Shown here: in pieces, positions 2,745 to 55,261 of the stretch
Position numbering within the stretch: position 1 is the first letter of the stretch
Layout of the letters: each line of letters starts with the position of its first letter
NCBI GenBank assembly: GCA_018056375.1
Contig: JAGPFQ010000001.1
Location: forward strand, 522,231 to 586,230
Length of the DNA: 64,000 nt
Reading direction: 5' to 3'
Origin: Candidatus Dojkabacteria bacterium
GTDB taxonomy: Bacteria; Patescibacteriota; Dojkabacteria; SC72
Program-made: the position numbers and the translations under genes
The notes under the pieces: generated by a model
Databases searched by the model: none
Seen by the model: only the letters and a program-made list of their open reading frames with translations
Told to the model about the DNA's origin: nothing

Positions 2745-4169
2745 CTAGTGGGTATCTTTGTCATCATCAGATTCGTTTTGAGCATGCACTTTCTTTTTTC
2801 CAAAGAAATCAATTGCTACCCTTAACTCTTCTTTCTCTTTTGCATACTCTTCAAGAGGAATTTTCTTCTCCCACGCTTCATATGCTTGTAATACGGCTGT
2901 TGCTCCTGATTTCGTACCCATTGGATGAGAATGCACTCCTCCACCCATTGTTGTAATGAAGTCTCGAGTTCCAATTATGTCTAAAAATTCACCGATTAGA
3001 GTGGGATTAAGACCTCCTGAGATTATTGGACAAGTCTTTTTGGTAATTCTCCACAAACCAAGATCCTCATAGTCTTCTCCTTTTTCTTCCATCTCTATTG
3101 CTTTTACTAAATCAACATCCTTTTCTGGAATCTCTGCCCATACTTGGTTAAAGAAATCTCCTTTAGAGAAAAGTCTTAAAGCATGATTTGCAGCCATAAC
3201 ATCTTCCTTAGGTGAACCTGCCATTTTACCTACTGCAGCCGTACCCGTATGGATACCAGAAGCACCAGCTAATCTAGCAAACTTAGTAAGCACGGGAACT
3301 GTAAAGCCAAAAGGAGTTTCTTCTCTAGTAAAAGCCCCATGACCTGCTCTATGGAAGTGTAAGAATACATCAGGATACCTTCTCCTAATTGTTTGTACAG
3401 CCATCCACCCTGCAGTTATACCATCGATTAGGAAAGCATAACTTCCTGGTTTCATTGTCGACCTTATAAGTTCAGCCCTCTCTATCATAGTATCATAGTC
3501 GGCAGCAGAAATATTAAAAGAGTGAACTTTTGTCTTACCTGTTTCCTTTTCAACTCTATCCATAGCATATCTAACATCTCTAACCATAAAATCAAATGGT
3601 GCGAAGTCCTGATCTGCTTGAGGTTCATCATTTTTTACAAAATCACCACCTCCACTCCAGAAATCATAACAAAGCTCTGCATATTCTGATGATGTTAGAC
3701 CTATCTTTGGTTTTATAATAGTTCCTAATACTGGCCTATTATCAATATTAAGATATTCTTTCATCTCTTTGATTGTATAGCTTGGTCCTTCATAGTGAAC
3801 TAACATTTGTGGTGGGAAATACACATCTAGAAGCTTACACTCTTCTAAAGATGACATACCAAAGACATTGCCAGCTAGAAAAGTAATTATATTTTGTACA
3901 TTTCCACCCCTATCAAAAATTCTCCAAGGGTAAGCTATCCAAACAAGATTTCTTGTCTCATCTATTCTGTAAATCCTAGCATTCATACTTTCAGAATATG
4001 AGGTAGCTGCTTTAATTTTGACATTTGAACCGGTTGAAGATTCTGCAGCGACTTCTGTTGCAACATCATCTAAAGGAATACCATTTTTCCCTTTAATTCT
4101 ATATACAGCTAAAAGAAATTGACCATTAAAAACTTCTTGGTCACCTAATTTAAGATACTGAAGTTGCAT
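2745..4169 (-). CDS. rbcL: Ribulose-1,5-bisphosphate carboxylase large subunit, form II/III (archaeal-type)
   Basis: GTIIKPKIGL (K175/K177), GGGDFVKNDE (carbamylated K201, D203, E204), LHFHRAGHGAFTR (H294/R295), GIHTGTAAVGKMAG (H327/K334), GGGVHSHP (loop 6 / phosphate-binding region) and LAGNVFG (N123). All catalytic residues are present, so it is not a RuBisCO-like protein. Confidence 0.9.
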   Translation of the reverse strand: MQLQYLKLGDQEVFNGQFLLAVYRIKGKNGIPLDDVATEVAAESSTGSNVKIKAATSYSESMNARIYRIDETRNLVWIAYPWRIFDRGGNVQNIITFLAGNVFGMSSLEECKLLDVYFPPQMLVHYEGPSYTIKEMKEYLNIDNRPVLGTIIKPKIGLTSSEYAELCYDFWSGGGDFVKNDEPQADQDFAPFDFMVRDVRYAMDRVEKETGKTKVHSFNISAADYDTMIERAELIRSTMKPGSYAFLIDGITAGWMAVQTIRRRYPDVFLHFHRAGHGAFTREETPFGFTVPVLTKFARLAGASGIHTGTAAVGKMAGSPKEDVMAANHALRLFSKGDFFNQVWAEIPEKDVDLVKAIEMEEKGEDYEDLGLWRITKKTCPIISGGLNPTLIGEFLDIIGTRDFITTMGGGVHSHPMGTKSGATAVLQAYEAWEKKIPLEEYAKEKEELRVAIDFFGKKKVHAQNESDDDKDTH

Positions 4170-18746: not shown

Positions 18747-20537
18747 GTGGGAGAGGTAAAAAGAGTTACAACAACAAAGAAATCTAACAAGCTAATCAGA
18801 ACACTTTTAATTGTTGTTGGAATTTTAGGACTAATATTAATATTAGTCGCCATCTATTTCTATGCAATAAAACCAACACAAGAGGAAAAGACTGAAGCTA
18901 AAAGAGAATGTGCTTGTTACTACATAGACCCTACAGTTGTACCTGAATGTGGTGACCCAAGAAAAGGGTTTATGTTTAAGACAAGTACTGTTTCTGGTAC
19001 ACAGTCCTGTGCAAGTGCTTGTCCTATAAGTAACTTACCAATAACAGAACTCAAAAGTACAACAAAACAGGAAGACTATCTCAATTGTGCTATTCAAACC
19101 CTACAAGATACCAGATGTGCAGAAATGATTGTTACAGATGAGACTGGTAAGATAATTACAGGTAATATTGATGCTACCGATCAAGTTAAAGTAATTGCAA
19201 AATTTGACAAAGCATATAAAAATACAACATTCCTACTTAATAATGCATCTGTTGAGCCAGACACAGTATCAGAAGATGGCACCACCATAGAAAAAACTTT
19301 TTCTGATTTTACAACTCCCGCACTTGATATAGTAGCAACAGCAGAAGATGAAACAGGAGAAAAGATTAACTCTATCCTTTGTAAAAGGTTACTCACAGTA
19401 AAACAAAGTGGCTCTACTGCAGTTACAAGTCTTCTAATAGAAAAACGGGTGGAAGATGATGAAACTACGAAAATATCTAAGGCTTCCATTAGAATAGCTA
19501 ATATTGTAGACAGTGAGGATATCAATATACTTTTCTCATTTGGAGGTGACACTTTCTCCAACTTATCAATGACTAAGGGTTTTGTTGTAGACAAAGAAAA
19601 AGGTAACATATCAATACTTGAACAAGAACTTTACAATAACGAAAACTTTGTTGAAGATTTAAGTTTCTCTCAGTTTAATGAATACTTTGGAGACTTAAAA
19701 GTTACTGCTGAAGTGTTAGAAGGAGATAATCCTCTAGGTAAAGCATCTACCAATGTAACATTTACCAAGAAAGAGATAGAAATACCAGAAGAACAACCTT
19801 CAGGGCAAGAACCAGAACCTCAACTACAAGAAGACGAGGAAGAAGAGTCTAATTTTGCAATAACAATTTCTAATGAAGCCGAGTGTATTGATAGAGTAGA
19901 ACCAAACAACAGTGTCCTATTTACAATAACCATAAAAAATAATGCAACTACTTCACAAAAGATACTTTCTGTTAAAAATAAGTTACCTTTAGGTTTTGCT
20001 TATCTAAATGGTTCTTCAAAAATCAATGAGGTTGAAATAATTGATACCGACTATATGCAAATTAATCAAATCGGAGACACAGAGGTATTATCATGGCAAA
20101 TAGAAGAAGGATGGGATATCAAATCAACAGAACAAATAGTAATAGTCTTTAAAGCTATAGCTGGAGAGAATGCACTGACAGGTGAAAATACAAATGAAGT
20201 AGTAATAGAACCAGAACAAGTTCCTGTATCTCCAGACACATTAAGAGCCTCTTCTACTATAAATGTAGTACAATCCTGTGTACCCACTGAAGAAGGTGGG
20301 GCTCCAGCAACACCTGAGACAGGTATCTTTGACAATATAATCGTTCAAGTTACTTTAGGTGTACTTATCGTATTCTTCGGTTGGTACATTTACACAAAAC
20401 CATTTGGACAGGTTATCATAAAAAAGTTGGTAGATTCAGAAGCTTACAAAGGTGCGGAAATGGGTATATGGAGAATCTTCAAACCAAGAAAGTATTTCGA
20501 AGAAATAATTGTCAAGAAAAGCAATAAAAAGAAGTAA
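18747..20537 (+). CDS. Surface protein with Cys-rich N-terminal region, DUF11 (conserved repeat) domain and a C-terminal xPETG + hydrophobic + basic tail (candidate sortase substrate)
   Basis: N-terminal signal anchor. DUF11-like segment (CIDRVEPNNSVLFTITIKNNATTSQKILSVKNKLPLGFAYLNGSS). C-terminus ...GGAPATPETG-IFDNIIVQVTLGVLIVFFGWYIY-TKP...KKSNKKK. Confidence 0.5.
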   Translation: MGEVKRVTTTKKSNKLIRTLLIVVGILGLILILVAIYFYAIKPTQEEKTEAKRECACYYIDPTVVPECGDPRKGFMFKTSTVSGTQSCASACPISNLPITELKSTTKQEDYLNCAIQTLQDTRCAEMIVTDETGKIITGNIDATDQVKVIAKFDKAYKNTTFLLNNASVEPDTVSEDGTTIEKTFSDFTTPALDIVATAEDETGEKINSILCKRLLTVKQSGSTAVTSLLIEKRVEDDETTKISKASIRIANIVDSEDINILFSFGGDTFSNLSMTKGFVVDKEKGNISILEQELYNNENFVEDLSFSQFNEYFGDLKVTAEVLEGDNPLGKASTNVTFTKKEIEIPEEQPSGQEPEPQLQEDEEEESNFAITISNEAECIDRVEPNNSVLFTITIKNNATTSQKILSVKNKLPLGFAYLNGSSKINEVEIIDTDYMQINQIGDTEVLSWQIEEGWDIKSTEQIVIVFKAIAGENALTGENTNEVVIEPEQVPVSPDTLRASSTINVVQSCVPTEEGGAPATPETGIFDNIIVQVTLGVLIVFFGWYIYTKPFGQVIIKKLVDSEAYKGAEMGIWRIFKPRKYFEEIIVKKSNKKK

Positions 20538-20538
20538 A

Positions 20539-20955
20539 CTAAAGATCTTCCAAAAGAAATTCTAATGGAGAGCCATCTCTAGCATAACCTTTGTTATCAG
20601 AATTGATTATAAAAAAGTATCTCTCCTTAGCCAAAAGCTTTTCTAATAAAACCTCATGTTCAGTTGACTTTGCAACATTCTCTATATTCAACCCTATTCT
20701 ATTCAAATCTTCTCTATCTAAACCATATTGAACAAACCCTGAACACTTTTCCTTTGTCATCCATTTTATCCTAACAGAAAAATTATCATCTCCTTTTTCA
20801 AGAAGTAAATTATATGGAGTACAACCTTCCTGTTTTGTAAAAAGAGAATCATAACTCTTGACATTACTCTTAAAAAATAAAAAAGTAGAGATAGCTACAA
20901 TAACTAGAGCAATACCTACAAACAGACTAAAAATTTTAATCTTCATCTTTATCAA
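20539..20955 (-). CDS. Hypothetical membrane-anchored protein
   Basis: ORF with an N-terminal TM helix. No recognisable domain. Confidence 0.3.
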   Translation of the reverse strand: MIKMKIKIFSLFVGIALVIVAISTFLFFKSNVKSYDSLFTKQEGCTPYNLLLEKGDDNFSVRIKWMTKEKCSGFVQYGLDREDLNRIGLNIENVAKSTEHEVLLEKLLAKERYFFIINSDNKGYARDGSPLEFLLEDL

Positions 20956-21373
20956 CTATCAAAATATAATTATCCTGGCTAGAAGAATTATACCCATCAG
21001 AAACTCTTAATACAAAATTCACAGTCTCCCCTACAGCATCAACTGGAATATACCCCCTAACAACATTATCTAACCCTAAAGTAAGCCATTCTGGAGCGGA
21101 AACAAGCTCAAGTGTAAGATATTCAATATCAGTATCATTATCCATAACTTTAGGAAAATATTCATACAGTTCACCTACAGTGGCAAACATAGGAGGTACA
21201 GATATAATCTTAGGAATAGCTGTTACTTCAACAACCTCTTCCACAACATCCTCCTTTACTCCCAATATCTCCTCTGAATCCCTGTCAAGATACAGATAAA
21301 CAGTTGAAAACCCTAAAAGAAAAACTATAAAAAGAACGCTTATTAGAATCTTCATTTTCCTACTTTCTTCCAT
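20936..21373 (-). CDS. Hypothetical secreted protein with a putative Ig-like fold
   Basis: Signal anchor. LTLELVSAPEWLTLG...VNFVLRVSDG resembles putative Ig / cadherin-like domain repeats. Confidence 0.3.
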   Translation of the reverse strand: MEESRKMKILISVLFIVFLLGFSTVYLYLDRDSEEILGVKEDVVEEVVEVTAIPKIISVPPMFATVGELYEYFPKVMDNDTDIEYLTLELVSAPEWLTLGLDNVVRGYIPVDAVGETVNFVLRVSDGYNSSSQDNYILIVDKDED

Positions 21374-21461
21374 AGTAAAAGGATAACATAAAAACCAATG
21401 TTTACAAATACTACAAGAATGTATATAATACCTTGATTAATAAATAATATTTACAAACAAA

Positions 21462-21758
21462 ATGCCAAATTTAAAAGCTTCTAAAAAAGATTTAAGAGCA
21501 ACTCGAAGAAGAACAGAGATTAATGATAGACTTCGAAACAGAATTAAGAAGGCGACAAAAAAGCAAAACACCTTAGTTCAAGAAGGAAGTCTAGAAGAAG
21601 GAAAAAAGAACATAAAGCATGTCTACAAAGTTCTTGACAAAGCAGCTAAGAAGAATGTTATTAAAAAAGGTAAGGCTGATAGGGTTAAATCCAGACTTAC
21701 AAAAAATTTAAACAAACTTGCCCAAGTTGATGTCAAAACTGCTAAGAAGAATTCTTAA
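21462..21758 (+). CDS. rpsT: 30S ribosomal protein S20
   Basis: MPNLKASKKDLRATRRRTEINDRLRNRIKKATKK, typical S20 basic helical N-terminus. Confidence 0.85.
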   Translation: MPNLKASKKDLRATRRRTEINDRLRNRIKKATKKQNTLVQEGSLEEGKKNIKHVYKVLDKAAKKNVIKKGKADRVKSRLTKNLNKLAQVDVKTAKKNS

Positions 21759-21786
21759 AATCTCTGTAACTCCTGCTATATTAATG

Positions 21787-22278
21787 ATAGCTGGGAAATT
21801 ACTCGGAATAATAATTGCTAACGTGGTTTATCACCTCGATTTTTTCATAGACAATCAGATTAGAGGTATATTCTCTATCCAACTCTACTACACCAATCCT
21901 TCAACAACACTCTTAGTAAACTCATACTCAAATCTTTTTATGGTGATATGCCTTGCAGTACCAACACTGTATTTCATCATTAAAACATCTGTCTATCAAT
22001 CTAGTTTACAAAATCCAAAAACTATTGTTAAGATTACCAATTTTAATATTCTTAAATGGATTACAAAAGACGATACATCATTTCTCAAGATATTCATTTG
22101 GGGTTCATTCCTAGTCGTTGCATGCTTGATTGTAGTTGCACAAACAATACAAGGTATGACATACCAATGGATTGGTATTCTAGCTGGAGTACTAGCTGTC
22201 TTCTCTATCTGGGGAACCATAAAGACATACGAGACAGAAATTGATAAAATATACCCAAGAGAGGATAAACTTTACTAA
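21787..22278 (+). CDS. Hypothetical polytopic membrane protein
   Basis: Several hydrophobic helices. Start moved to the internal Met to avoid overlap with rpsT (the ORF track starts at 21718). Confidence 0.3.
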   Translation: MAGKLLGIIIANVVYHLDFFIDNQIRGIFSIQLYYTNPSTTLLVNSYSNLFMVICLAVPTLYFIIKTSVYQSSLQNPKTIVKITNFNILKWITKDDTSFLKIFIWGSFLVVACLIVVAQTIQGMTYQWIGILAGVLAVFSIWGTIKTYETEIDKIYPREDKLY

Positions 22279-22284
22279 CCATAT

Positions 22285-22836
22285 ATGAAAAAGAAGAAAA
22301 ATCTACTACCACAACTTTTAGAACCATTAGCTATTGTAGTTCTCTTAGGTCTCTTCATTATCCCTACCCTCACAGTCATAAACCTCTCCCCTATCACACA
22401 AGATAATAAACAGATAGATGTCCTAGGTGTTACAAGTGATGACACTGGTTTAGTGGTTAACATAGTGGGAGGAATACACAATATCTTTAAAAATGAAGTT
22501 TTAGAGCAAAAACCTTTTGGAGAGTACCAATATACTAGTACTATTTCCAAAAGAAAGGGAAAAGAAGTTTATTCTAAACCTATCTTAGAAATAAAAAACG
22601 AAACCAGTGTAGAAAGGAGTGTTCTTCTCTATGGATATATTAATAATAGTAGAAATACACATCTTGCTATAAACGTTGGGAAAGATAAGTATGTTTTAAA
22701 TGATAGTAATAATCAAGCATATACAAGAGAGATTAGTATTAAACCAGGAGAAAGAAAGGTCCTCTATCTAGAAACAAAGAATGAGGAAAAAGTGTTTTTT
22801 GATCAAGAGTTTGTTTTAGACATCTCAGTGAAGTAA
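22285..22836 (+). CDS. Hypothetical secreted/membrane-anchored protein
   Basis: N-terminal TM or signal. No recognisable domain. Confidence 0.3.
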   Translation: MKKKKNLLPQLLEPLAIVVLLGLFIIPTLTVINLSPITQDNKQIDVLGVTSDDTGLVVNIVGGIHNIFKNEVLEQKPFGEYQYTSTISKRKGKEVYSKPILEIKNETSVERSVLLYGYINNSRNTHLAINVGKDKYVLNDSNNQAYTREISIKPGERKVLYLETKNEEKVFFDQEFVLDISVK

Positions 22837-25655: not shown

Positions 25656-26714
25656 ATGGTCTCTAAAATAAAGCTAACCAACTTTAGAAAATTCAAAAAC
25701 TTAGAATTAGATATTGATAAAGATATAGTAGTATTACATGGTGATAATGCTGTTGGTAAAAGTACAATACTAGAAGCAATATCCTTAATTACAAATGGAA
25801 AATCTCCCTGGGCTAGCACAGATGAATATATCTCTACCAATCAAGAAGAAGAAACATCATTCTGTAGAATTGAAATTACAACAAAAGAAGATGGTGAAGA
25901 AAAGACATATTCATATTACAAAACAAATTCAAGAAGAATATTGAAAATCAATGACACAAACACACCGATAAAGAAGTTTTTTGAAGAGACAGCATCTACA
26001 ATATTTAATCCAGAGAAAATTGAAATACTAATGATATCACCAAGTAAAAGGAGAGAGTTTTTAGATGAAATAATATCTACCTTAGATTATGAATATGTAG
26101 AAATACTCAAACAATTTAGAAAAGTTCTTAAACAAAGAAACGCATACCTTAAAAAGTTATCTAAACAGTTCTATGACAAAGGTATTATCGCTAGAAATGA
26201 CCCTCAACTTAATTTCTGGACAAATGAGTTTCTAAAGTCTGCTAAGAAGATACAAGAGATGAGAGAGAGATTATCAAAGAGAATGAAGACTAAGGAATTA
26301 AAGATTGAATACATTAAATCAAATGGTGATATTGCTCTAGAAGATGCTTTAGAGAATTCAAAGAAAAGAGATATTGCTACTGGATATACTAATATTGGAC
26401 CACACAGAGATGATTGGGAGTTAATTAATAAATTTAGTATTAAAAAATATGGATCTAGGGGTGAAAAAAGACTGTCTATCGGTAAATTAATATTTGAGGT
26501 GCAGAAGATTATGAAGAAAGAACTTGGCTATTACCCTATTCTTCTTCTTGATGATATTGCTTCTGAGTTAGATAAAAAGAATACAGCAGAGATATTTAAA
26601 CCTGAGATATTAAATAAACAACAGACATTTATTACAATTATTGATTACAAGAACCTTCCTAAAGATGTAATACAAAATGCACAGTTAATTAATTTGAATG
26701 ATTTTCAACTTTAA
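25656..26714 (+). CDS. recF: DNA replication and repair protein RecF
   Basis: IKLTNFRKFKNLELDIDKDIVVLHGDNAVGKSTILEAISL (Walker A), signature/Walker B LLLDDIASELD. Confidence 0.75.
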   Translation: MVSKIKLTNFRKFKNLELDIDKDIVVLHGDNAVGKSTILEAISLITNGKSPWASTDEYISTNQEEETSFCRIEITTKEDGEEKTYSYYKTNSRRILKINDTNTPIKKFFEETASTIFNPEKIEILMISPSKRREFLDEIISTLDYEYVEILKQFRKVLKQRNAYLKKLSKQFYDKGIIARNDPQLNFWTNEFLKSAKKIQEMRERLSKRMKTKELKIEYIKSNGDIALEDALENSKKRDIATGYTNIGPHRDDWELINKFSIKKYGSRGEKRLSIGKLIFEVQKIMKKELGYYPILLLDDIASELDKKNTAEIFKPEILNKQQTFITIIDYKNLPKDVIQNAQLINLNDFQL

Positions 26715-27784
26715 ATTTCATCAATCATTGATTTAAGATCCGAGGAGGAGATTGGCTGTCTTGCCAATTTTTCCTGTTTTGCTATATTGGAAGCTTCTGC
26801 AAATTCCTTTAGTAATCCCTTAAGATTCACACCATGTATTTTGTCATTAAGTCCATCCTTCATAAACATGGCCCAGTAGAAGTTTGTATCCTTTTCTGAT
26901 GAGATAACATTACCCTCTCGATCCGTAATTTGACCCTCATTTGTGAATCCTCTATCAGGGAAAAGTTCTACATTGCTAAATTTGGTTTGAAATCCATCCA
27001 AGTTTTTAGAGTTTTCCCCCTTGGATATAATATGTCTATATATGGTCTCATAATCTTCTTCTGGTCTCCCTTCAAAAACCCCTCCTATAACTGAATAAAT
27101 CATACCCCTCTTTGTCAGCATTATGAAAGAATTGTTATATAAAATGGCTTCACTTAAATTTTTAGGGGAAGAAAACTCCTCACTGATACCAACACTACTA
27201 GTTAATTCTTTCTTTTTCGATGCAAATACGCCTCTTTCAAAAATCAGAGCTTCTTCACCATCAGAGAACTTCATTTGTCTAAATGCTCCTTCAAATTTCG
27301 GTTCATTTTTAAGAATTTCAATTATCTCTAAATTTCTTTTTTCACTTTCATTTGTTACATATTCTCTTTCTGTTGGGGTACTTTCTTGTTGTTTACGTAA
27401 ATCTTCATACATTTGTCTCATACCTTCACTCACATAAGCTCCATCCTCCCTAAAGAAACTATATGGTTTGCCTATGTCCCGATAATCTACATTACCGCCT
27501 AAAGGTACACTTGTCGATTTACCTCCTTCATACGGTAAGATTTTAATTTCTGATTTAGTTCCTGCTCTTGGTAACGGTACAAAACCTCCATTTTCTTGAT
27601 TTACTTCCGCTGGTACAAAAGTACCATCAACCATCGTTCCAAATTGCATGTCATTTAGTGTGAATCTCTTATCTTCTCCACCCTCTTGAGTGAGTGGTTG
27701 TGATGTAGTATGACCCTCCCCTTCTTGACCTACAGGAGTAAAATCACTTTTATCTTCTGTTGTTGATAGTTCTGGGCTATCCAT
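26711..27784 (-). CDS. Hypothetical protein (acidic N-terminus, no recognisable domain)
   Basis: Long ORF with good coding character. No motif recognised. Confidence 0.3.
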   Translation of the reverse strand: MDSPELSTTEDKSDFTPVGQEGEGHTTSQPLTQEGGEDKRFTLNDMQFGTMVDGTFVPAEVNQENGGFVPLPRAGTKSEIKILPYEGGKSTSVPLGGNVDYRDIGKPYSFFREDGAYVSEGMRQMYEDLRKQQESTPTEREYVTNESEKRNLEIIEILKNEPKFEGAFRQMKFSDGEEALIFERGVFASKKKELTSSVGISEEFSSPKNLSEAILYNNSFIMLTKRGMIYSVIGGVFEGRPEEDYETIYRHIISKGENSKNLDGFQTKFSNVELFPDRGFTNEGQITDREGNVISSEKDTNFYWAMFMKDGLNDKIHGVNLKGLLKEFAEASNIAKQEKLARQPISSSDLKSMIDEI

Positions 27785-29063: not shown

Positions 29064-29894
29064 ATGAAACAACATGCAATACCTCAAAATGTATTAGATG
29101 TAGAGTTTAAACTATTTACTAAGTTTACTCTTAAGGAATTTGCTTATTTAGCAATAGGTGTAGGTATTGGTGGTTTATTCCTCTATCTAACCGTAAGTAA
29201 AAAGATTCCTGCTATAATAGGTATCCCTATCTTTGTAGTATTCTCTGGTGCAGGTGTTTTCTTAGCTCTTGTCCCTATCAATGATCAACCTGCAGACAAA
29301 TTTATACAAAACTATATAACAGCAATCACAAATCCAACACAAAGAGTATGGAAAAGCAAAAACCAAGGAGACAAAGCACAAAAACCTGGAGTTAAACCCT
29401 CAAAAGATGGTACACTTGTCTCCAAAGATGTAAAGGAAAGACCCAAGATTATTGGTTCCTCTATAAGTAAGAGTAAGATTGTAGAAGAGACTTCAGAAAA
29501 TGTTAAAGCCATAGACAGACAAATAGAAGAAGCAGAAAAAGCTACTATTATAAGACAGGTTGATGCAAATAAAATATTAATTAACTCTGAAAACATATCT
29601 AACTATCAATTTAATATCAAAGGGTTTGAAAACATTCCTGGAAATATTAACCTATGGCTATCTACAAAAGATTACCAACCCATACCAAATGTTGTAGCAC
29701 AACTCAAAGATAGCAGTGGTAATTTACTCTATGCAAATAAAACAGGATCTAATGGATATTTCCTAACTAATAAGAGATGGAATCCTGATAAATATGTTGT
29801 AGAATTTGAATCTGGGGAATATAAATTTCCAAAGGTGGAAATTATTCTTACTGGAAGAGAAAGTAATTTACCTATTAAAATATCTGCTCTGTAA
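29064..29894 (+). CDS. PrgI/VirB3-like small membrane protein of Gram-positive-type type IV secretion systems
   Basis: Two closely spaced TM helices near the N-terminus (FAYLAIGVGIGGLFLYL...IIGIPIFVVFSGAGVFLALV). Immediately upstream of a VirB4 ATPase. The family assignment comes from architecture and context, so it is tentative. Confidence 0.45.
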   Translation: MKQHAIPQNVLDVEFKLFTKFTLKEFAYLAIGVGIGGLFLYLTVSKKIPAIIGIPIFVVFSGAGVFLALVPINDQPADKFIQNYITAITNPTQRVWKSKNQGDKAQKPGVKPSKDGTLVSKDVKERPKIIGSSISKSKIVEETSENVKAIDRQIEEAEKATIIRQVDANKILINSENISNYQFNIKGFENIPGNINLWLSTKDYQPIPNVVAQLKDSSGNLLYANKTGSNGYFLTNKRWNPDKYVVEFESGEYKFPKVEIILTGRESNLPIKISAL

Positions 29895-29896
29895 TT

Positions 29897-30541
29897 ATGG
29901 ATAAAAGAAAAGCAAAGGCTAGAGCCACAGCAACAGCATCAACTCAAGACCATCTTGCAGTACGTGATATTAGAGATGATTTGATTATTAATAAGAATGG
30001 AAGTGTATCCATGGTTATTCAAACATCTGCTATCAACTTCGATCTTTTGGCAGAATATGAGCAAGATAATAAAATATTAGCATTTGGTGGTTTACTAAAC
30101 TCTCTTAACTTCCGTGTTCAAATAATGATTAGGACAAAAAGAATTGATATTAGTAACTATATTACATACTTGAGATCACAAAGAGACAAAAGTATGAGTG
30201 AAGGACTACAAAAGCAGTTAGATATATATACCCACTTTATAGAAAACTTAATTGTCGAGAATGATGTCTTAGATAAAACATTCTTTATAATAGTACCATA
30301 TCATACAGGAGCAGTTTTACCAGAAGTTTCTCTATTTAAAGGTAAGAAAAGTAATACAGAGGAAGAGGCTATCGCCAACCAAAAGATAGAACAATTACTT
30401 GAAAAAGCTAAGATATTCTTAAACCCAAAGAGAGATCACATACTTAAACAGTTAAGTAGGATGGGACTATCTGGTCACCAATTAACAACAAAAGAATTAA
30501 TTTCAGAACTATACACAATGTATAATCCTGAAGAGGAGTAG
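29897..30541 (+). CDS. Hypothetical protein, T4SS-module associated
   Basis: Translationally coupled between the PrgI-like and VirB4 genes. No TM segment and no recognisable motif. Confidence 0.3.
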   Translation: MDKRKAKARATATASTQDHLAVRDIRDDLIINKNGSVSMVIQTSAINFDLLAEYEQDNKILAFGGLLNSLNFRVQIMIRTKRIDISNYITYLRSQRDKSMSEGLQKQLDIYTHFIENLIVENDVLDKTFFIIVPYHTGAVLPEVSLFKGKKSNTEEEAIANQKIEQLLEKAKIFLNPKRDHILKQLSRMGLSGHQLTTKELISELYTMYNPEEE

Positions 30542-30549
30542 TAAAGAAA

Positions 30550-32970
30550 ATGGAAAATAACAAAACAATTACAAGTAAAACAAGTAATATGCTCTCTGAT
30601 AGGCAGAAGAGCCTGCAAACCTCTGGAGAGAAATATGCTCAATTCCAGGAGCAGATTAAAGTAGACCCTAGTGCAGTTGAAGATACTAGAAGACATCCTA
30701 CAGAAGAATTTGTAGACCCTAATAAGCAAGATGGAAAAAAGAAAAGTCCTGTTTTGAGATTTTTGGATAAGATTGCAGAGAAAGTAAACCAAGGAGAGAA
30801 AGAGACAAATCCAAGTGAAGATATTATATTACAAGAAGAAACTGAAGAATACATTTCTCCCCTTGGTACAAAGACCGATTTGTCTATTCAGGATCTTGTT
30901 GCACCAATAGATATGGAGATTGATTTCAATCATCTTCAAATGGGCGATTATTATTTTAGAACCTTTTTTATCAGTGGATACCCTAGATTTGTAGGACCTA
31001 ACTGGCTCTCCCCTATTATTAACTTTGAACACTCTTTAAGAATAAGTACTTTCTACTATCCTGTTGAATCAAAAGTTATTCTTGAAAAATTAAAAAAGAA
31101 AATAGGAGAGATGGAAGCCACTCTCTATTCTCAAATGGAAGATAGAAAAGTTATAGATCCTTCATTAAAAGTGGCACTCTCTGATGCACAAATGTTACAA
31201 GATTCAATAGCCGAAGGAACAGAGAAGTTCTTCCATTTCTCTATGTATGTAACTATATATGCCAAAGATGAAGATACATTAGAGAAAATCTCACGAAATG
31301 TAGTTTCCACTCTAGCAGCCATGAATGTAACAGCAAAGCCAGCTACACTACAACAAGAACAAGGTTTTATTGGCACTCAGCCACTAGGTATAGACAACCT
31401 ATATATTACAAGAAATATGGACACAACATCTCTTGCAACAACTTTTCCTTTTGTCACTTCGGAGTTGACTATGGATCATGGCATTATGTATGGATTAAAT
31501 GTACACAACAAAAGCTTGGTTGTATTTGACAGATTTGAGTTAGAAAATGCAAATACTGTAGTATTTGCAAAGTCAGGAGCTGGTAAGAGCTATTTTGTAA
31601 AACTCGAGGCAGTTAGAAGTTTAATGTTAGGCACCGAGATTATTATAATTGACCCAGAGAGGGAATATGAAAACTTAGCTCATGCAGTCGATGGAGCATA
31701 TATCTCTTTCTCTCAAGATAAAGGGCATAAAATGAATCCTTTTGAGCTGTCTGGAATCTCTGAAGAGGGAGATGATGAACTAAGAATGAAATTACTTTCC
31801 TTACATGGCTTCTTTAAAGTCCTCTTCGAAGGAATAACAAATATAGAAGATGCTATTTTAGACAGAGCTCTTCAATTAACATACAGAGAGAAGGGAATAA
31901 CTTTTGATCCTAATACACAATCAAACACCCCTCCACTACTTGAAGACTTATACAAAGTTCTTAAAGGTATGGCAGAAACAGAAGCACATGGCCTTGCAAG
32001 AAGATTAGAAAAATATCTAATTGGAAGTGGTGCAGGTGTTTTCAATGAAGCAAGCAACTTCGAGATAGATAATCCTTTTACAGTCTTTAGTGTAAGAGAC
32101 TTACAAGAAGAACTAAAACCTCTAGCTATGTACCTAATGTTAGACTTCATATGGACCAGAATTAGAAAGGATCAGAAAAGAAGATTATTAATAGTTGATG
32201 AAGCTTGGTATATGATGCAATCAGAAGATTCCGCTAAATTTATGTACTCTATAGCTAAACGAGCAAGAAAATATTACTTAGGACTCACTACAATCACACA
32301 AGACGTTGCAGACTTCTTAAATAATGAGATGGGCAGAGCTATCATCTCAAACTCATCTATTCAAATGTTGATGAAACAGAGTCCCTCCGCCGTAGATTTA
32401 CTACAAAGAGTCTTCAATCTTTCTGACGGAGAAAAAGGTTACCTGCTAAGTTGTGACAAAGGACAGGGTCTTTTCTTTGCCGGATCTAATCATGTAGGTA
32501 TCCAAGTTATTTCCAGTGTAGCAGAACATGAATTGATTACTTCAGACCCTAGAGATTTAGAAAAACTAAAAGCTAGGGAGGGACAAGAAGATACAAGGAC
32601 AATAGAGGAGCTAGCACAGATATATGATGCTCCTACAACACAACAACCTACAAGAGACTCCAAACCTGGGAGAGAAGATGAACTGATTAGTGAGGCAGTA
32701 GAAAGAAGAGAAAGACAAAAGGGTATGTTAGAAAAAGAGAGAGAAGCATACCAGCAGGAATTAGAAAGAAAACTACAAGAACAAGAAAAGATAATGAATC
32801 CAGAAAAATTTGCAAAACAAAAAACATTTTTAGACGAATTAAATGAAAATACTTTAACGGGACAAGTAGTTAACCAAAGGAAAGAAACTTTAAAAGGAAG
32901 ACGTCACCTGACACCACAAGGAATGGTTCAAAGTTACCCAAATGAAGAGGAGGATAATGAAAATGTTTAG
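30550..32970 (+). CDS. Type IV secretion system ATPase VirB4/TraC/PrgJ-like
   Basis: Walker A VVFAKSGAGKSYF, Walker B RLLIVDEAWYMM, a VirB4-type N-terminal domain (YYFRTFFISGYPRFVGPNWLSPII), about 800 aa. Confidence 0.85.
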   Translation: MENNKTITSKTSNMLSDRQKSLQTSGEKYAQFQEQIKVDPSAVEDTRRHPTEEFVDPNKQDGKKKSPVLRFLDKIAEKVNQGEKETNPSEDIILQEETEEYISPLGTKTDLSIQDLVAPIDMEIDFNHLQMGDYYFRTFFISGYPRFVGPNWLSPIINFEHSLRISTFYYPVESKVILEKLKKKIGEMEATLYSQMEDRKVIDPSLKVALSDAQMLQDSIAEGTEKFFHFSMYVTIYAKDEDTLEKISRNVVSTLAAMNVTAKPATLQQEQGFIGTQPLGIDNLYITRNMDTTSLATTFPFVTSELTMDHGIMYGLNVHNKSLVVFDRFELENANTVVFAKSGAGKSYFVKLEAVRSLMLGTEIIIIDPEREYENLAHAVDGAYISFSQDKGHKMNPFELSGISEEGDDELRMKLLSLHGFFKVLFEGITNIEDAILDRALQLTYREKGITFDPNTQSNTPPLLEDLYKVLKGMAETEAHGLARRLEKYLIGSGAGVFNEASNFEIDNPFTVFSVRDLQEELKPLAMYLMLDFIWTRIRKDQKRRLLIVDEAWYMMQSEDSAKFMYSIAKRARKYYLGLTTITQDVADFLNNEMGRAIISNSSIQMLMKQSPSAVDLLQRVFNLSDGEKGYLLSCDKGQGLFFAGSNHVGIQVISSVAEHELITSDPRDLEKLKAREGQEDTRTIEELAQIYDAPTTQQPTRDSKPGREDELISEAVERRERQKGMLEKEREAYQQELERKLQEQEKIMNPEKFAKQKTFLDELNENTLTGQVVNQRKETLKGRRHLTPQGMVQSYPNEEEDNENV

Positions 32971-33211
32971 CTTTTTTAAGAAGAAAGATGACACAAACAC
33001 ACAACCTTTAGATGAAGATATCTATCTTGTGACACAGGCAGTGGATACAGATTCTTTAGCAGTAGAACAAAAACAAGATGATTTAGCAAAACTAACCAAA
33101 GCAGAGAGTAAGAAAGAGTATAAATCGAATATTGCTAAATCAATTGCAAATCCTGCCATAGCCAGAGCAGCAACAGCATTACAAATGAAAAACCCTTTCA
33201 AAGGAAATTAG
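32942..33211 (+). CDS. Small hypothetical protein
   Basis: ORF overlapping the VirB4 stop. Weak call. Confidence 0.2.
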   Translation: MKRRIMKMFSFFKKKDDTNTQPLDEDIYLVTQAVDTDSLAVEQKQDDLAKLTKAESKKEYKSNIAKSIANPAIARAATALQMKNPFKGN

Positions 33212-34389
33212 CTTAGTGGTCCTTGGTCTACATTAAGGAATTCTCCCAAATTATCTTTATTAATAACTATTGGAAGTGAATGACCATCTACAATCTTTCT
33301 TGCTGCACTCCTAATCATTGTTCCTATATTTCTCTCTAATTGCCTTATACCAGCATCAAAACCAACTGGTCGAATAACCGAAAGCCAAATATCATCACTA
33401 ATCTGAATATGCTCAGATGAAAGATTTAATTCTTTAAGAACATTTGGAAGAATATATTTCTTTGCTATTACCTCTTTCTCTTCATCTGAATAGCTTGTAA
33501 ACCTAATTATCTCTACTCTATCTAATAAAGCTGCAGATAGTCCTCCTAGATTATTTGCGGTACAAATAAACATTACTCTGGAGAGGTCTACTGGGTAATC
33601 TATGTAATGGTCAACAAATGTATTATTCTGTTCTGGGTCTAATATCTCTAGTAATGTAGCCATAACATCACTTAACAAACCGGCATTACCACTAGCCTTT
33701 TCGATCTCGTCTAGTAGTATGACAGGATTCATAGTTCCACATCTAACTAATGCTTTAATTATCTGTCCTGGCTCCCCGTCTATAGAATATCTAGGCGTCC
33801 CTCTTAAAGTTCTAACATCTCCAATTGCACCTAGTGATATCCTTACAAACTTTCTATTCATAGATTTTGCAATTGATTTCGCTATTGAAGTCTTACCCAC
33901 ACCTTGTAGACCTACAAACATAAAAACAGGAGAATGTACTTCAAAATCTTCATATTGTTCAACAGGTCTTGATTCTCTAGCTTGCGAATCCATAGGTATT
34001 TGGGTTGGGACATTTGCTACATTTGTTACATTTCCAGCTTTTAACTGCATGGAAGCTAGATAGTCTAAAATCAGATTCTTAACAGAGTCCATACCGTGAT
34101 GAGTACTATCCATTATCTCTTTAGCTTGTGCTATATCTAAACAATCTTGAGATACATTACCCCACGGTATCCTTACTATCCAATCTATATATTTACTTAC
34201 ATTCTCAAACTCATTACTATACCCACCCATTCTAACCATTCTTTTTAACCTTTGGATAGAGAGCATAGCTTCTTCTTTGAGCTCTGTTGGTGTAGATGAG
34301 GAATTTAATTTATTCTCTAATTGAGTTATTTCAGCTAAACTTTCATCAAGCACACTTGTTGTTGTAGGTAGGGCAGTATTGTTATCCAT
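33208..34389 (-). CDS. Lon-like AAA+ ATPase lacking both the LAN N-domain and the C-terminal protease domain
   Basis: YIDWIVRIPWGNVSQ, Walker A GLQGVGKTSIAKSIA, RKFVRISLGAIGDVRTLRGTPRYSIDGEPGQII, Walker B ILLDEIEKAS, LLEILDPEQNNTFVDHY sensor/arginine-finger region, DRVEIIRFTSYSDEEK. The ORF stops exactly where the Lon protease domain would begin. Confidence 0.8.
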   Translation of the reverse strand: MDNNTALPTTTSVLDESLAEITQLENKLNSSSTPTELKEEAMLSIQRLKRMVRMGGYSNEFENVSKYIDWIVRIPWGNVSQDCLDIAQAKEIMDSTHHGMDSVKNLILDYLASMQLKAGNVTNVANVPTQIPMDSQARESRPVEQYEDFEVHSPVFMFVGLQGVGKTSIAKSIAKSMNRKFVRISLGAIGDVRTLRGTPRYSIDGEPGQIIKALVRCGTMNPVILLDEIEKASGNAGLLSDVMATLLEILDPEQNNTFVDHYIDYPVDLSRVMFICTANNLGGLSAALLDRVEIIRFTSYSDEEKEVIAKKYILPNVLKELNLSSEHIQISDDIWLSVIRPVGFDAGIRQLERNIGTMIRSAARKIVDGHSLPIVINKDNLGEFLNVDQGPLS

Positions 34390-54074: not shown

Positions 54075-54962
54075 GTGGCAGATATAAACAACGTTAACTT
54101 CAAAGAAAAAGCAGAACTTTTTGCCAAGGATCTAACTTCCAAAGGAAGATCTGAGTCCACTGTTATCGCTTATGCAAAAGACATTGAGCAATTATTAAAC
54201 TATCTGTCGAAAAGAGGAATTCTTTCTTTAGATAAAGTAACTATCGAAGATTTAGAGGGATATAAACAAAACCTACAGGATAATAACTACACTCCAAAAA
54301 GTGTCTCTAGAAAAATAAATAGTACTAGAACTTTCTTCAGATTTCTTTTGGAAAACAACTTTGTAAGCGATAATGTTTCCGAGAAATTAGCACATCCTAG
54401 ATTTGAAATTAAGCCACCCAGAGTACTAACAGAGATGGAGTACAGAGCATTAAGGGATGTTAGTAGAGTTGATATTAGACTCTACTCTATTGTAGAGATT
54501 CTTCTTCAAACAGGAATTAGAATTGGAGAATTAGCAGGACTTTCCCTTGATGATATTAGAAAGTCAAAGGATGGAAAGATTGATTTTCTTTACATTAAAG
54601 CTGCTGGTAGCCATCCAGCTAGAAAAGTTCCCCTAAACAAGTCTGCAAAGAAAGCATTAGATGATTATATTGCAGTTAGACCAGAGACAGAAGAAGATAC
54701 TATTTTCATCACAAAGAATGGTAGACCTTTACTGGTAAGAAATATTAGAACTGCAATAGATAAATCTTTTGAGAGAGCTGGTATTAAGAATGCAAAGGTT
54801 AATGATCTTAGAAACACTTTTATTGCACATCATTTGGCCAATGGTGTTGGACTACCAACTGTATCAAAGCTTGTTGGACATAAGAGACTTTCTACTACAG
54901 AGAAATATCTGAATATTATTCCAGCTGTTGGTAAGGAAGAAAAGAACCTTAAGGAACTCTAA
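54075..54962 (+). CDS. Tyrosine site-specific recombinase, XerC/XerD family (GTG start)
   Basis: N-terminal SAM-like core-binding domain. Catalytic-domain residues: R in ...GIRIGELAGL..., H-x-x-R in FIAHHLANGVGL / LVGHKRLSTTEKY, with the terminal Tyr in EKYLNI. Confidence 0.8.
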   Translation: MADINNVNFKEKAELFAKDLTSKGRSESTVIAYAKDIEQLLNYLSKRGILSLDKVTIEDLEGYKQNLQDNNYTPKSVSRKINSTRTFFRFLLENNFVSDNVSEKLAHPRFEIKPPRVLTEMEYRALRDVSRVDIRLYSIVEILLQTGIRIGELAGLSLDDIRKSKDGKIDFLYIKAAGSHPARKVPLNKSAKKALDDYIAVRPETEEDTIFITKNGRPLLVRNIRTAIDKSFERAGIKNAKVNDLRNTFIAHHLANGVGLPTVSKLVGHKRLSTTEKYLNIIPAVGKEEKNLKEL

Positions 54963-55138
54963 ATAATTAACTCTTAATACAGGTTCAGGTTACCACACTT
55001 ACTTTCCCTTTCCCCATATGGACTATTACCGTTTTATTATGATTAGTTAACAAATTACAGGGTACTGTTTCCCTGTCACTATCTAACACCGAATCACAGT
55101 TTTGACTGAGGATTCTTCTCTTATATCAATGAAAAGTA

Positions 55139-55212
55139 TGGGAATAGGTGGACTCGAACCACCGACTTCGGCTTTATAAGAACCGTGCTCTGACCTCCTG
55201 AGCTATATTCCC
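55139..55212 (-). tRNA. tRNA-Ile (anticodon UAU)
   Basis: Minus strand GGGAAUA/UAUUCCC acceptor, discriminator A73, D arm GCUC-AGGAGGUCA-GAGC, anticodon stem CGGUU/AGCCG with loop CUUAUAA (U34 A35 U36), T arm GGUGG-UUCGAGU-CCACC. CCA is not encoded. Confidence 0.8.
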
Positions 55213-55261
55213 ATATACAATGGGTATTTTACCAAAACTCTGATGATTTTAGAAGCCTCTA

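Follow-up and report, generated by a model that had tools for sequence, protein, structure and literature searches.

The question raised by positions 29064-32970 of the Candidatus Dojkabacteria DNA analysed here (contig JAGPFQ010000001.1; the whole stretch of 64 kb is called the window) is whether three adjacent genes belong to a type IV secretion system (T4SS), and which part of such a system they would form. A first-pass annotation, made from the letters alone, had read them as a minimal T4SS module in a bacterium belonging to the candidate phyla radiation (CPR, or Patescibacteria); the organism is indeed a CPR member. Our analysis indicates that the locus is very probably the cytoplasmic-membrane energising core of the Patescibacteria-clade T4SS, related to the conjugation machinery of monoderm bacteria (mating-pair formation class MPF-FATA). 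The three-gene set is already known: it is a member of a published CPR system and not a new kind of system. The open reading frames (ORFs) are named here ORF1 (PrgI-like), ORF2 (TrsD-like) and ORF3 (VirB4).

Pfam was run on every window ORF of at least 100 aa. Selected ORFs were also compared with NCBIfam and PHROGs and scanned for transmembrane (TM) helices, and the small intergenic ORFs were checked for two-helix pilin-like proteins. Contigs of one genome per species were scanned for relatives of VirB4. This yielded 160 relatives, and the best 80 of the 160 were kept as comparison loci, onto which all window proteins were mapped by tblastn. Many of the 80 loci are labelled Dojkabacteria or WS6; about half are labelled otherwise, mostly "uncultured Candidatus Saccharibacteria". 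Because the loci with enough flank share the same synteny, these other labels look generic. The features are collected in Table 1.

Table 1. Features of the T4SS locus and related features of the window (positions within the 64-kb window; AF2, AlphaFold2).
Feature	Coordinates	Strand	Basis
PrgI/VirB3-family membrane protein, 276 aa	29064..29894	+	Pfam PF12666, TM scan, synteny, AF2 model
CnaB/transthyretin-like C-terminal β-sandwich of the PrgI-like protein, residues ~170-276	29571..29891	+	AF2, Foldseek, alignment
TrsD-like protein, 214 aa, predicted separately encoded VirB4 N-terminal segment	29897..30541	+	
VirB4 ATPase body, 806 aa	30550..32970	+	NCBIfam NF045971, Pfam, PDB 4ag5, 80/80 loci
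Walker A AKSGAGKS, VirB4 residues 340-347	31567..31590	+	From sequence directly
Walker B LLIVDE, VirB4 residues 546-551	32185..32202	+	From sequence directly
Small hydrophilic ORF, 89 aa, overlaps the virB4 3' end	32942..33211	+	tblastn across 80 loci
VirD4/TraD-like P-loop ATPase, 834 aa, one N-terminal TM helix	55262..57766	-	Pfam T4SS-DNA_transf, phrog_5156

The first-pass annotation had described three packed, co-oriented genes, and its coordinates proved exact. ORF1 and ORF2 are separated by 2 nt and ORF2 and ORF3 by 8 nt, and across the related loci the gaps are almost always between -1 and +2 nt. This packing is tight enough for translational coupling. A promoter and terminator scan gave nothing above shuffled expectation.

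The third gene was annotated as a VirB4 ATPase with Walker A and B motifs, and this identification was confirmed. ORF3 scored 393 bits against the NCBIfam model NF045971 (VirB4-like CD1110), above the curated cutoff of 325 bits. The other VirB4-type models of NCBIfam gave 278 bits (Mbov_0397 VirB4, VirB4_plasma), 185 bits (TraC) and 124 bits (VirB4_CagE). In Pfam, matches were found to P-loop_TraG (PF19044, 96.4 bits vs. 25.8) and AAA_10 (PF12846, 42.8 bits vs. 27.5). Residues 331-664 matched the VirB4 C-terminal domain of PDB 4ag5 with an E-value of 1.2e-47, which was the only sequence match of ORF3 to a solved structure at E <=0.001, and both Walker motifs are located in this RecA-like C-terminal domain. 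The protein consists of a poorly conserved N-terminal extension (residues 1-~115), a core (~117-680) and a charged, variable tail (~681-806). Conservation in the core (~120-680) reached 75-95% per 20-residue block; the first ~110 and the last ~125 residues are variable and charged. The VirB4-specific N-domain, which had been assigned to the ATPase, is present, but only its distal part lies in ORF3 and the proximal part is found in ORF2. From the best profiles and the published tree (PMC12102498) we infer that ORF3 falls within the Patescibacteria clade nested in MPF-FATA.

In the case of ORF2, the claim that the 214-aa protein has no recognisable domain did not survive. The protein is soluble, without a TM helix. 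The Pfam scan gave no match even at E <=10, and a PDB sequence search with ORF2 alone gave no match. Comparison with NCBIfam revealed a match of residues 13-96 to TrsD/TraD (NF041427; E-value 1.4e-7) with 31.6 bits against a curated cutoff of 200 bits. ORF2 is therefore named a TrsD-like remote homologue, not a family member by the NCBIfam criterion. It also matched positions 92-233 of the 894-position Mbov_0397 VirB4 model (NF045975, 5.8e-8), of which ORF3 covers positions 275-889, so that the two ORFs are colinear and do not overlap on one model. A profile of ORF2 homologues was searched against 1.84 billion representative proteins and returned 2,042 relatives; precomputed Pfam PF26593 (TraC-like) is present on most ORF2 homologues among the matches listed. 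These relatives include P0362, a natural single-chain TrsD-VirB4 of 787 aa. Its residues 7-199 align with ORF2 (40% identity, 5e-47) and its residues 213-786 with residues 117-691 of ORF3 (57% identity), leaving a junction of ~13 residues. Contigs that are independent and come from different samples (L081 and L082) carry P0362, each time preceded by a PrgI gene.

The colinear alignment to NF045975, the P0362 fusion and the PF26593 matches together identify ORF2 as the N-terminal piece of VirB4. Judged from sequence, it is a separately encoded, TrsD-like VirB4 segment, and ORF2 and ORF3 are one VirB4 split inside a linker, with the proximal N-segment on one side and the distal N-domain and the RecA-like ATPase on the other. 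TrsD has been described as a remote homologue of the VirB4 N-terminus that is encoded separately in the plasmids pGO1 and pSK41 (PMC12102498). ORF2 fits the description of a TrsD/TraD-type protein, being a soluble homologue of the VirB4 N-terminus of ~200 aa encoded between a VirB3-like gene and virB4. The structure prediction that the first-pass annotation had suggested for this protein gave a mixed result. The model superposes best on the N-terminal region of TrwK (PDB 7o41, 7o43, 8rtb), but its predicted local distance difference test (pLDDT) value is moderate (65) and the Foldseek match is weak (E-value of 0.018 at best). In many other CPR lineages the TrsD-like proteins carry P/Q/T/S-rich tails of 100-500 residues (P0242-P0390). 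Unlike them, the Dojkabacteria TrsD has no such low-complexity tail, and VirB4 bears the poorly conserved N-extension of ~110 aa (30550-30880). The disordered linker would be the same in both cases, with the Dojkabacteria gene break apparently at its opposite end.

ORF1 had been annotated as a PrgI/VirB3 protein with two TM helices, and this reading held. Its residues 6-95 match Pfam PrgI (PF12666) with 31.8 bits, above the gathering score of 27. The TM scan placed two adjacent hydrophobic helices at residues 26-44 and 51-69, and only ORF2 separates the gene from virB4. The protein is about three times as long as the 91-position Pfam model. Its PrgI domain (residues 1-97) is followed by a basic motif that is conserved (107-131), an acidic linker that varies, and a C-terminal β-sandwich, which was modelled by AF2 with a pLDDT of 80-90 on a tether of ~75 residues. 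Foldseek matches of this domain in PDB were CnaB2 (8bdw_A, 1.9e-4), 2x5p, SdrD B and transthyretin-like structures. The β-sandwich is kept in all 37 homologues of the PrgI-like alignment, and those with names are Dojkabacteria/WS6. It is absent from the one PrgI examined from outside the lineage (L081:5183-6004, adjoining the fused VirB4), which has a low-complexity tail instead. The domain therefore appears to be specific to Dojkabacteria. Residues 70-131 of ORF1 have a net charge of +6, which is consistent with the positive-inside rule and with both termini in the cytoplasm. If the N-in/C-in topology of VirB3 holds, the β-sandwich would be cytoplasmic, an unusual place for such a fold.

The three genes were then compared with their counterparts in the 80 loci. 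In the conserved order, holA is followed by a group of small proteins of the surface or membrane, ksgA (not in every case), lepA, recF, a nucleotidyltransferase-like gene (- strand), the PrgI-like gene, the TrsD-like gene, virB4, the 89-aa ORF and a Lon-like AAA+ gene (- strand). Syntenic presence was recorded for VirB4 in 80/80 loci, for the TrsD-like protein in 77/80, the PrgI-like protein in 71/80, the 89-aa ORF in 44/80 and the Lon-like AAA+ protein in 73/80. Identity to the related loci is 62-90% for VirB4, 48-94% for the TrsD-like and 34-89% for the PrgI-like protein; in the same loci the syntenic housekeeping neighbours LepA and RecF show 66-98% and 41-95%. The order of the three genes and their chromosomal context are thus kept across the class, with a conservation comparable to that of the housekeeping neighbours. 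Reading frames are intact, and the median lengths are 276, 214 and 804 aa (PrgI-like, TrsD-like and VirB4, respectively). The module is flanked by housekeeping genes (RecF, LepA, KsgA and the Lon-like AAA protein), and the window scans found no integrase or relaxase in or beside it. The other window ORFs are housekeeping or surface genes (GroEL/ES, RuBisCO, IF-2, NusA, DnaJ, sortase, AlaRS, PolA, FtsH, EF-P, SmpB), and the base composition of the window is uniform. The locus is vertically inherited, chromosomal and under strong constraint; it is not a mobile element or a remnant of one.

The absence of a relaxase, VirB6, VirB8 and a VirB1-like protein near the module, as reported in the first-pass annotation, was borne out. 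Neither these nor a VirB2-like pilin were found in the window by Pfam and NCBIfam, in the ORFs of at least 100 aa or in the small intergenic ORFs. Likewise, within ±10 kb in the 80 loci neither an ORF with at least five TM helices nor an M23-peptidase homologue is conserved. Within 64 kb the locus therefore does not qualify as a conjugative T4SS, since there is no relaxase and only a weak VirD4-like ATPase 22 kb off, nor as a complete monoderm channel, since no VirB6-like or VirB8-like protein or wall hydrolase is encoded near virB4. The description of the set as minimal is right for the locus and for the window as far as those genes go, but it has to be qualified by the VirD4-like gene. This ATPase scored 32.8 bits against Pfam T4SS-DNA_transf (gathering threshold 20.1) and 47 bits (1.5e-12) against NCBIfam VirD4-like CD1115, for which the cutoff is 250; it also matched the phage family phrog_5156 of unknown function (2.6e-78). 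We regard it as a candidate coupling-protein homologue. It adjoins tRNA-Ile(TAT) (55138-55213, -) and a Xer-like tyrosine recombinase (54075-54962, +).

A survey of 3,035 Patescibacteria genomes found VirB4 in 2,417, almost all in one clade within monoderm MPF-FATA (PMC12102498, Quiñonero-Coronel et al. 2025). For 2,407 Patescibacteria assemblies the same study described a relaxase-less chromosomal PrgI/VirB3-TrsD-VirB4 set that is monophyletic and nested in MPF-FATA, and it counted 1,649 PrgI/VirB3 homologues. Homologues of the type IV coupling protein were mostly distant from virB4, relaxases were almost absent, and ksgA was among the frequent virB4 neighbours; the dataset includes Dojkabacteria genomes, which were scored VirB4-positive. 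The locus analysed here resembles this system in that PrgI/VirB3, TrsD and VirB4 are encoded side by side on the chromosome of a CPR bacterium, no relaxase is present in the locus or the window, ksgA is nearby and the coupling-protein homologue is far from virB4. It differs in the CnaB/transthyretin-like β-sandwich of the PrgI-like protein, which is unmentioned in the text of PMC12102498, and in a TrsD without a low-complexity tail, the variable extension of ~110 aa being on VirB4 instead. The β-sandwich and the TrsD tail placement are minor, lineage-level variations absent from the cited text.

In Southlakia epibionticum, a T4SS cluster is essential for epibiotic growth, as determined by transposon sequencing (PMC10633639, Wang et al. 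2023). The essential genes there include PrgI, TrsD and VirB6 homologues and a pilin array, and comEC is dispensable (PMC12102498, PMC12857230). At the Saccharimonadia locus, VirB6, the VirB2-like pilin array and peptidoglycan hydrolases adjoin virB4, in contrast to the Dojkabacteria locus, where none of these was found within 64 kb. Another CPR lineage provides the closest fused counterpart, the L081 locus with P0362, which is colinear with ORF2 and ORF3 and likewise has PrgI directly upstream. Unlike here, the L081 protein is one polypeptide, an M23 peptidase of 890 aa is encoded after it, and the locus adjoins dnaN-dnaA.

The trsC-trsD-trsE genes of the Staphylococcus plasmids pGO1 and pSK41 encode, as described in PMC12102498, a small VirB3-like membrane protein, TrsD and a VirB4 ATPase, and the order found here is the same. 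pGO1, however, is a conjugative plasmid with a relaxase, a coupling protein, the hydrolase TrsG and other Trs proteins, whereas the present module is chromosomal and isolated. Moreover, ORF2 is far under the TrsD cutoff, and the best curated family of ORF3 is CD1110 (CTn2-type) and not TrsE. TrwM (VirB3) and TrwK (VirB4) of R388 offer a more distant parallel, with the VirB4 ATPase C-terminal domain in ORF3 and a VirB3-family partner upstream. R388 belongs to the diderm class MPF-T, with a single-chain VirB4, VirB6, VirB8, VirB10, an outer-membrane core and a pilus, and the identity is only ~10-14%.

On this basis we propose how the core would work. The PrgI-like protein would be inserted with both termini in the cytoplasm, as suggested by the VirB3-VirB4 complex of R388 (PDB 7o41, 8rtb). 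It would bind the TrsD/VirB4 N-domain and so anchor a TrsD-VirB4 hexamer at the inner membrane face. ATP hydrolysis would power either the building of an envelope-spanning apparatus or transport through it. Such an apparatus may serve the epibiotic lifestyle, either through contact with a host bacterium or by exchanging macromolecules with it. Other subunits of the channel or pilus would be encoded elsewhere in the genome or be too divergent to recognise. Because no relaxase or origin-of-transfer machinery accompanies the module, plasmid conjugation would not be driven by it. The first-pass annotation had likewise mentioned a role other than conjugation for reduced sets of this kind, and for relaxase-less CPR sets this is the published view (PMC12102498, PMC10633639, PMC12857230). 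What the T4SS does in CPR bacteria is unknown according to reviews (including PMC12857230 and PMC11665869), which consider the delivery of effectors, the formation of a pilus and the uptake of macromolecules from the host.

Several points weigh against the assignment to the energising core of a Patescibacteria-clade T4SS. The TrsD score of ORF2 stays below the curated cutoff, and confidence in the ORF2 structure model is only moderate, with a weak structural match. As no VirB6, VirB8-like protein, hydrolase or pilin was found in the 64 kb, or as a conserved gene within ±10 kb in the 80 loci, a complete secretion apparatus is not demonstrated. Finally, the proposed function is carried over from a Saccharibacterium.

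Other explanations of the locus were weighed against this assignment. ORF3 could be a DNA translocase of the HerA/FtsK type, or a packaging ATPase resembling a phage terminase, with an unrelated membrane partner. It does match DUF87, the central domain of HerA, marginally (32.5 bits), and phrog_2666, annotated as "terminase large subunit", at 2.8e-26. The VirB4-specific models nevertheless score far higher (393, 278, 185 and 124 bits), as the first-pass annotation would predict, FtsK models gave no match and the sole solved-structure match is a VirB4 domain. In addition, the N-terminal piece is similar to the N-domain of VirB4, a domain missing from HerA and FtsK, the upstream partner is of the PrgI/VirB3 family and no phage genes are nearby. 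This identity is rejected on profile scores and structure, and we consider it extremely improbable. Hardly more credible is that the module is a decaying, non-functional remnant of an integrative and conjugative element or a plasmid from a Gram-positive host, a remnant deprived of its genes for the relaxase, channel and hydrolase. The best curated family of ORF3 is a conjugative-element family (CD1110 of Clostridioides), and no further T4SS genes are adjacent, as such a remnant would have it. A remnant would, however, be patchy, pseudogenised and flanked by an integrase or repeats, and none of these was observed. In about 70-80 of the 80 species-level genomes these three genes have the same housekeeping surroundings, with intact frames, conserved lengths, the VirB4 core at 75-95% per block and uniform composition. 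Class-wide synteny and conservation led us to reject this explanation.

The remaining two concern function. Rather than export or pilus assembly, the module may power the import of DNA or other nucleic acids, similarly to the ComB T4SS of Helicobacter or the archaeal Ced system, and supply nucleotides to a cell unable to make its own. VirB4-family ATPases drive uptake in both of these systems, nucleotide synthesis is lacking in CPR bacteria, and reviews name import as a candidate role (PMC11665869). A 2026 preprint ties VirB4 to the transfer of macromolecules in a CPR parasite that feeds on RNA, and recF, an ATP-dependent DNA ligase and polA lie in the neighbourhood. ORF3 also matches CedB (NF041017), but with 61.8 bits against a cutoff of 700, and the window scans turned up neither a CedA-like nor a ComB-specific partner. 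The DNA-metabolism genes of the neighbourhood belong to the usual housekeeping set, the ligase shows no synteny in other Dojkabacteria, and sequence does not reveal which way transport runs. We therefore treat import as a possible but rather doubtful role. Less likely still, though not to the degree of the two rejected identities, is that the Dojkabacteria T4SS has been pared down to a free-standing PrgI-TrsD-VirB4 ATPase. Here the PrgI-like subunit would have gained the class-specific β-sandwich on its long flexible tether, and this domain, if the topology of VirB3 holds, could act as a cytoplasmic adaptor that docks substrates or partners, either replacing missing subunits (the coupling protein, VirB8) or coupling the motor to another envelope machine, e.g., type IV pili.

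The genes around the module were also inspected. The 89-aa ORF lies directly 3' of virB4 in each of the 44 loci that have it, with 36-84% identity by tblastn. It has no TM helix and no family match, and its membership of the T4SS module is uncertain. The Lon-like AAA+ ATPase (33208-34389, -, 393 aa) is convergent with virB4 in the 73 loci, and its match to the Lon model is confined to positions 253-567, without the protease domain. Beyond the Lon-like gene, the segment 34744-37888 (-) contains genes for a 604-aa ATP-dependent DNA ligase, a small helix-turn-helix protein and a nucleotidyltransferase. No counterpart of this segment was found within the ±10-kb flanks of the 80 loci, which places it outside the conserved synteny. 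A 357-aa ORF (26711-27784, -) between recF and the nucleotidyltransferase-like gene is absent from all 80 syntenic loci, gave no Pfam, NCBIfam or PHROG match and looks like a strain-specific insertion. A homologue of the RuBisCO large subunit (2745-4169, -; Pfam RuBisCO_large, 4.3e-87) adjoins groES/groEL, as has been reported of CPR bacteria whose RuBisCO is of the form II/III type.

For the block of surface and membrane proteins at 18747-22836, synteny was seen in about 34-51 of the 80 loci. Its members are a DUF11-like protein of 596 aa, which has TM helices at both termini and a PETG motif preceding the last helix, two TM proteins of ~140 aa with FN3/Ig-like matches, a protein of ~182 aa with four TM helices (4-TM protein) and a bitopic protein of 183 aa. 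The last of these (22285-22836) was tested as a VirB8-like candidate, and a profile search of PDB sequences gave no VirB8-like relative. In the case of the 4-TM protein (21718-22278, +), eight homologous loci have a stop codon 1-3 codons ahead of a conserved ATG (MSKL...). The apparent in-frame stops in its homologues are an artefact of the listed TTG start at 21718; the true ATG is residue 5, and the gene most likely starts at 21730.

Nearly universal among CPR bacteria, their T4SS is essential in the only species that was tested, and its mechanism is unexplained. The Dojkabacteria locus offers a clean case in which the conserved core of this system, a VirB3-like anchor with a VirB4 in two pieces, stands by itself among fixed housekeeping neighbours throughout a whole class. 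The fused homologue P0362 supports seeing TrsD as a detachable N-terminal segment of VirB4, and the lineage-specific β-sandwich of the PrgI-like protein could help to probe what the motor docks to.

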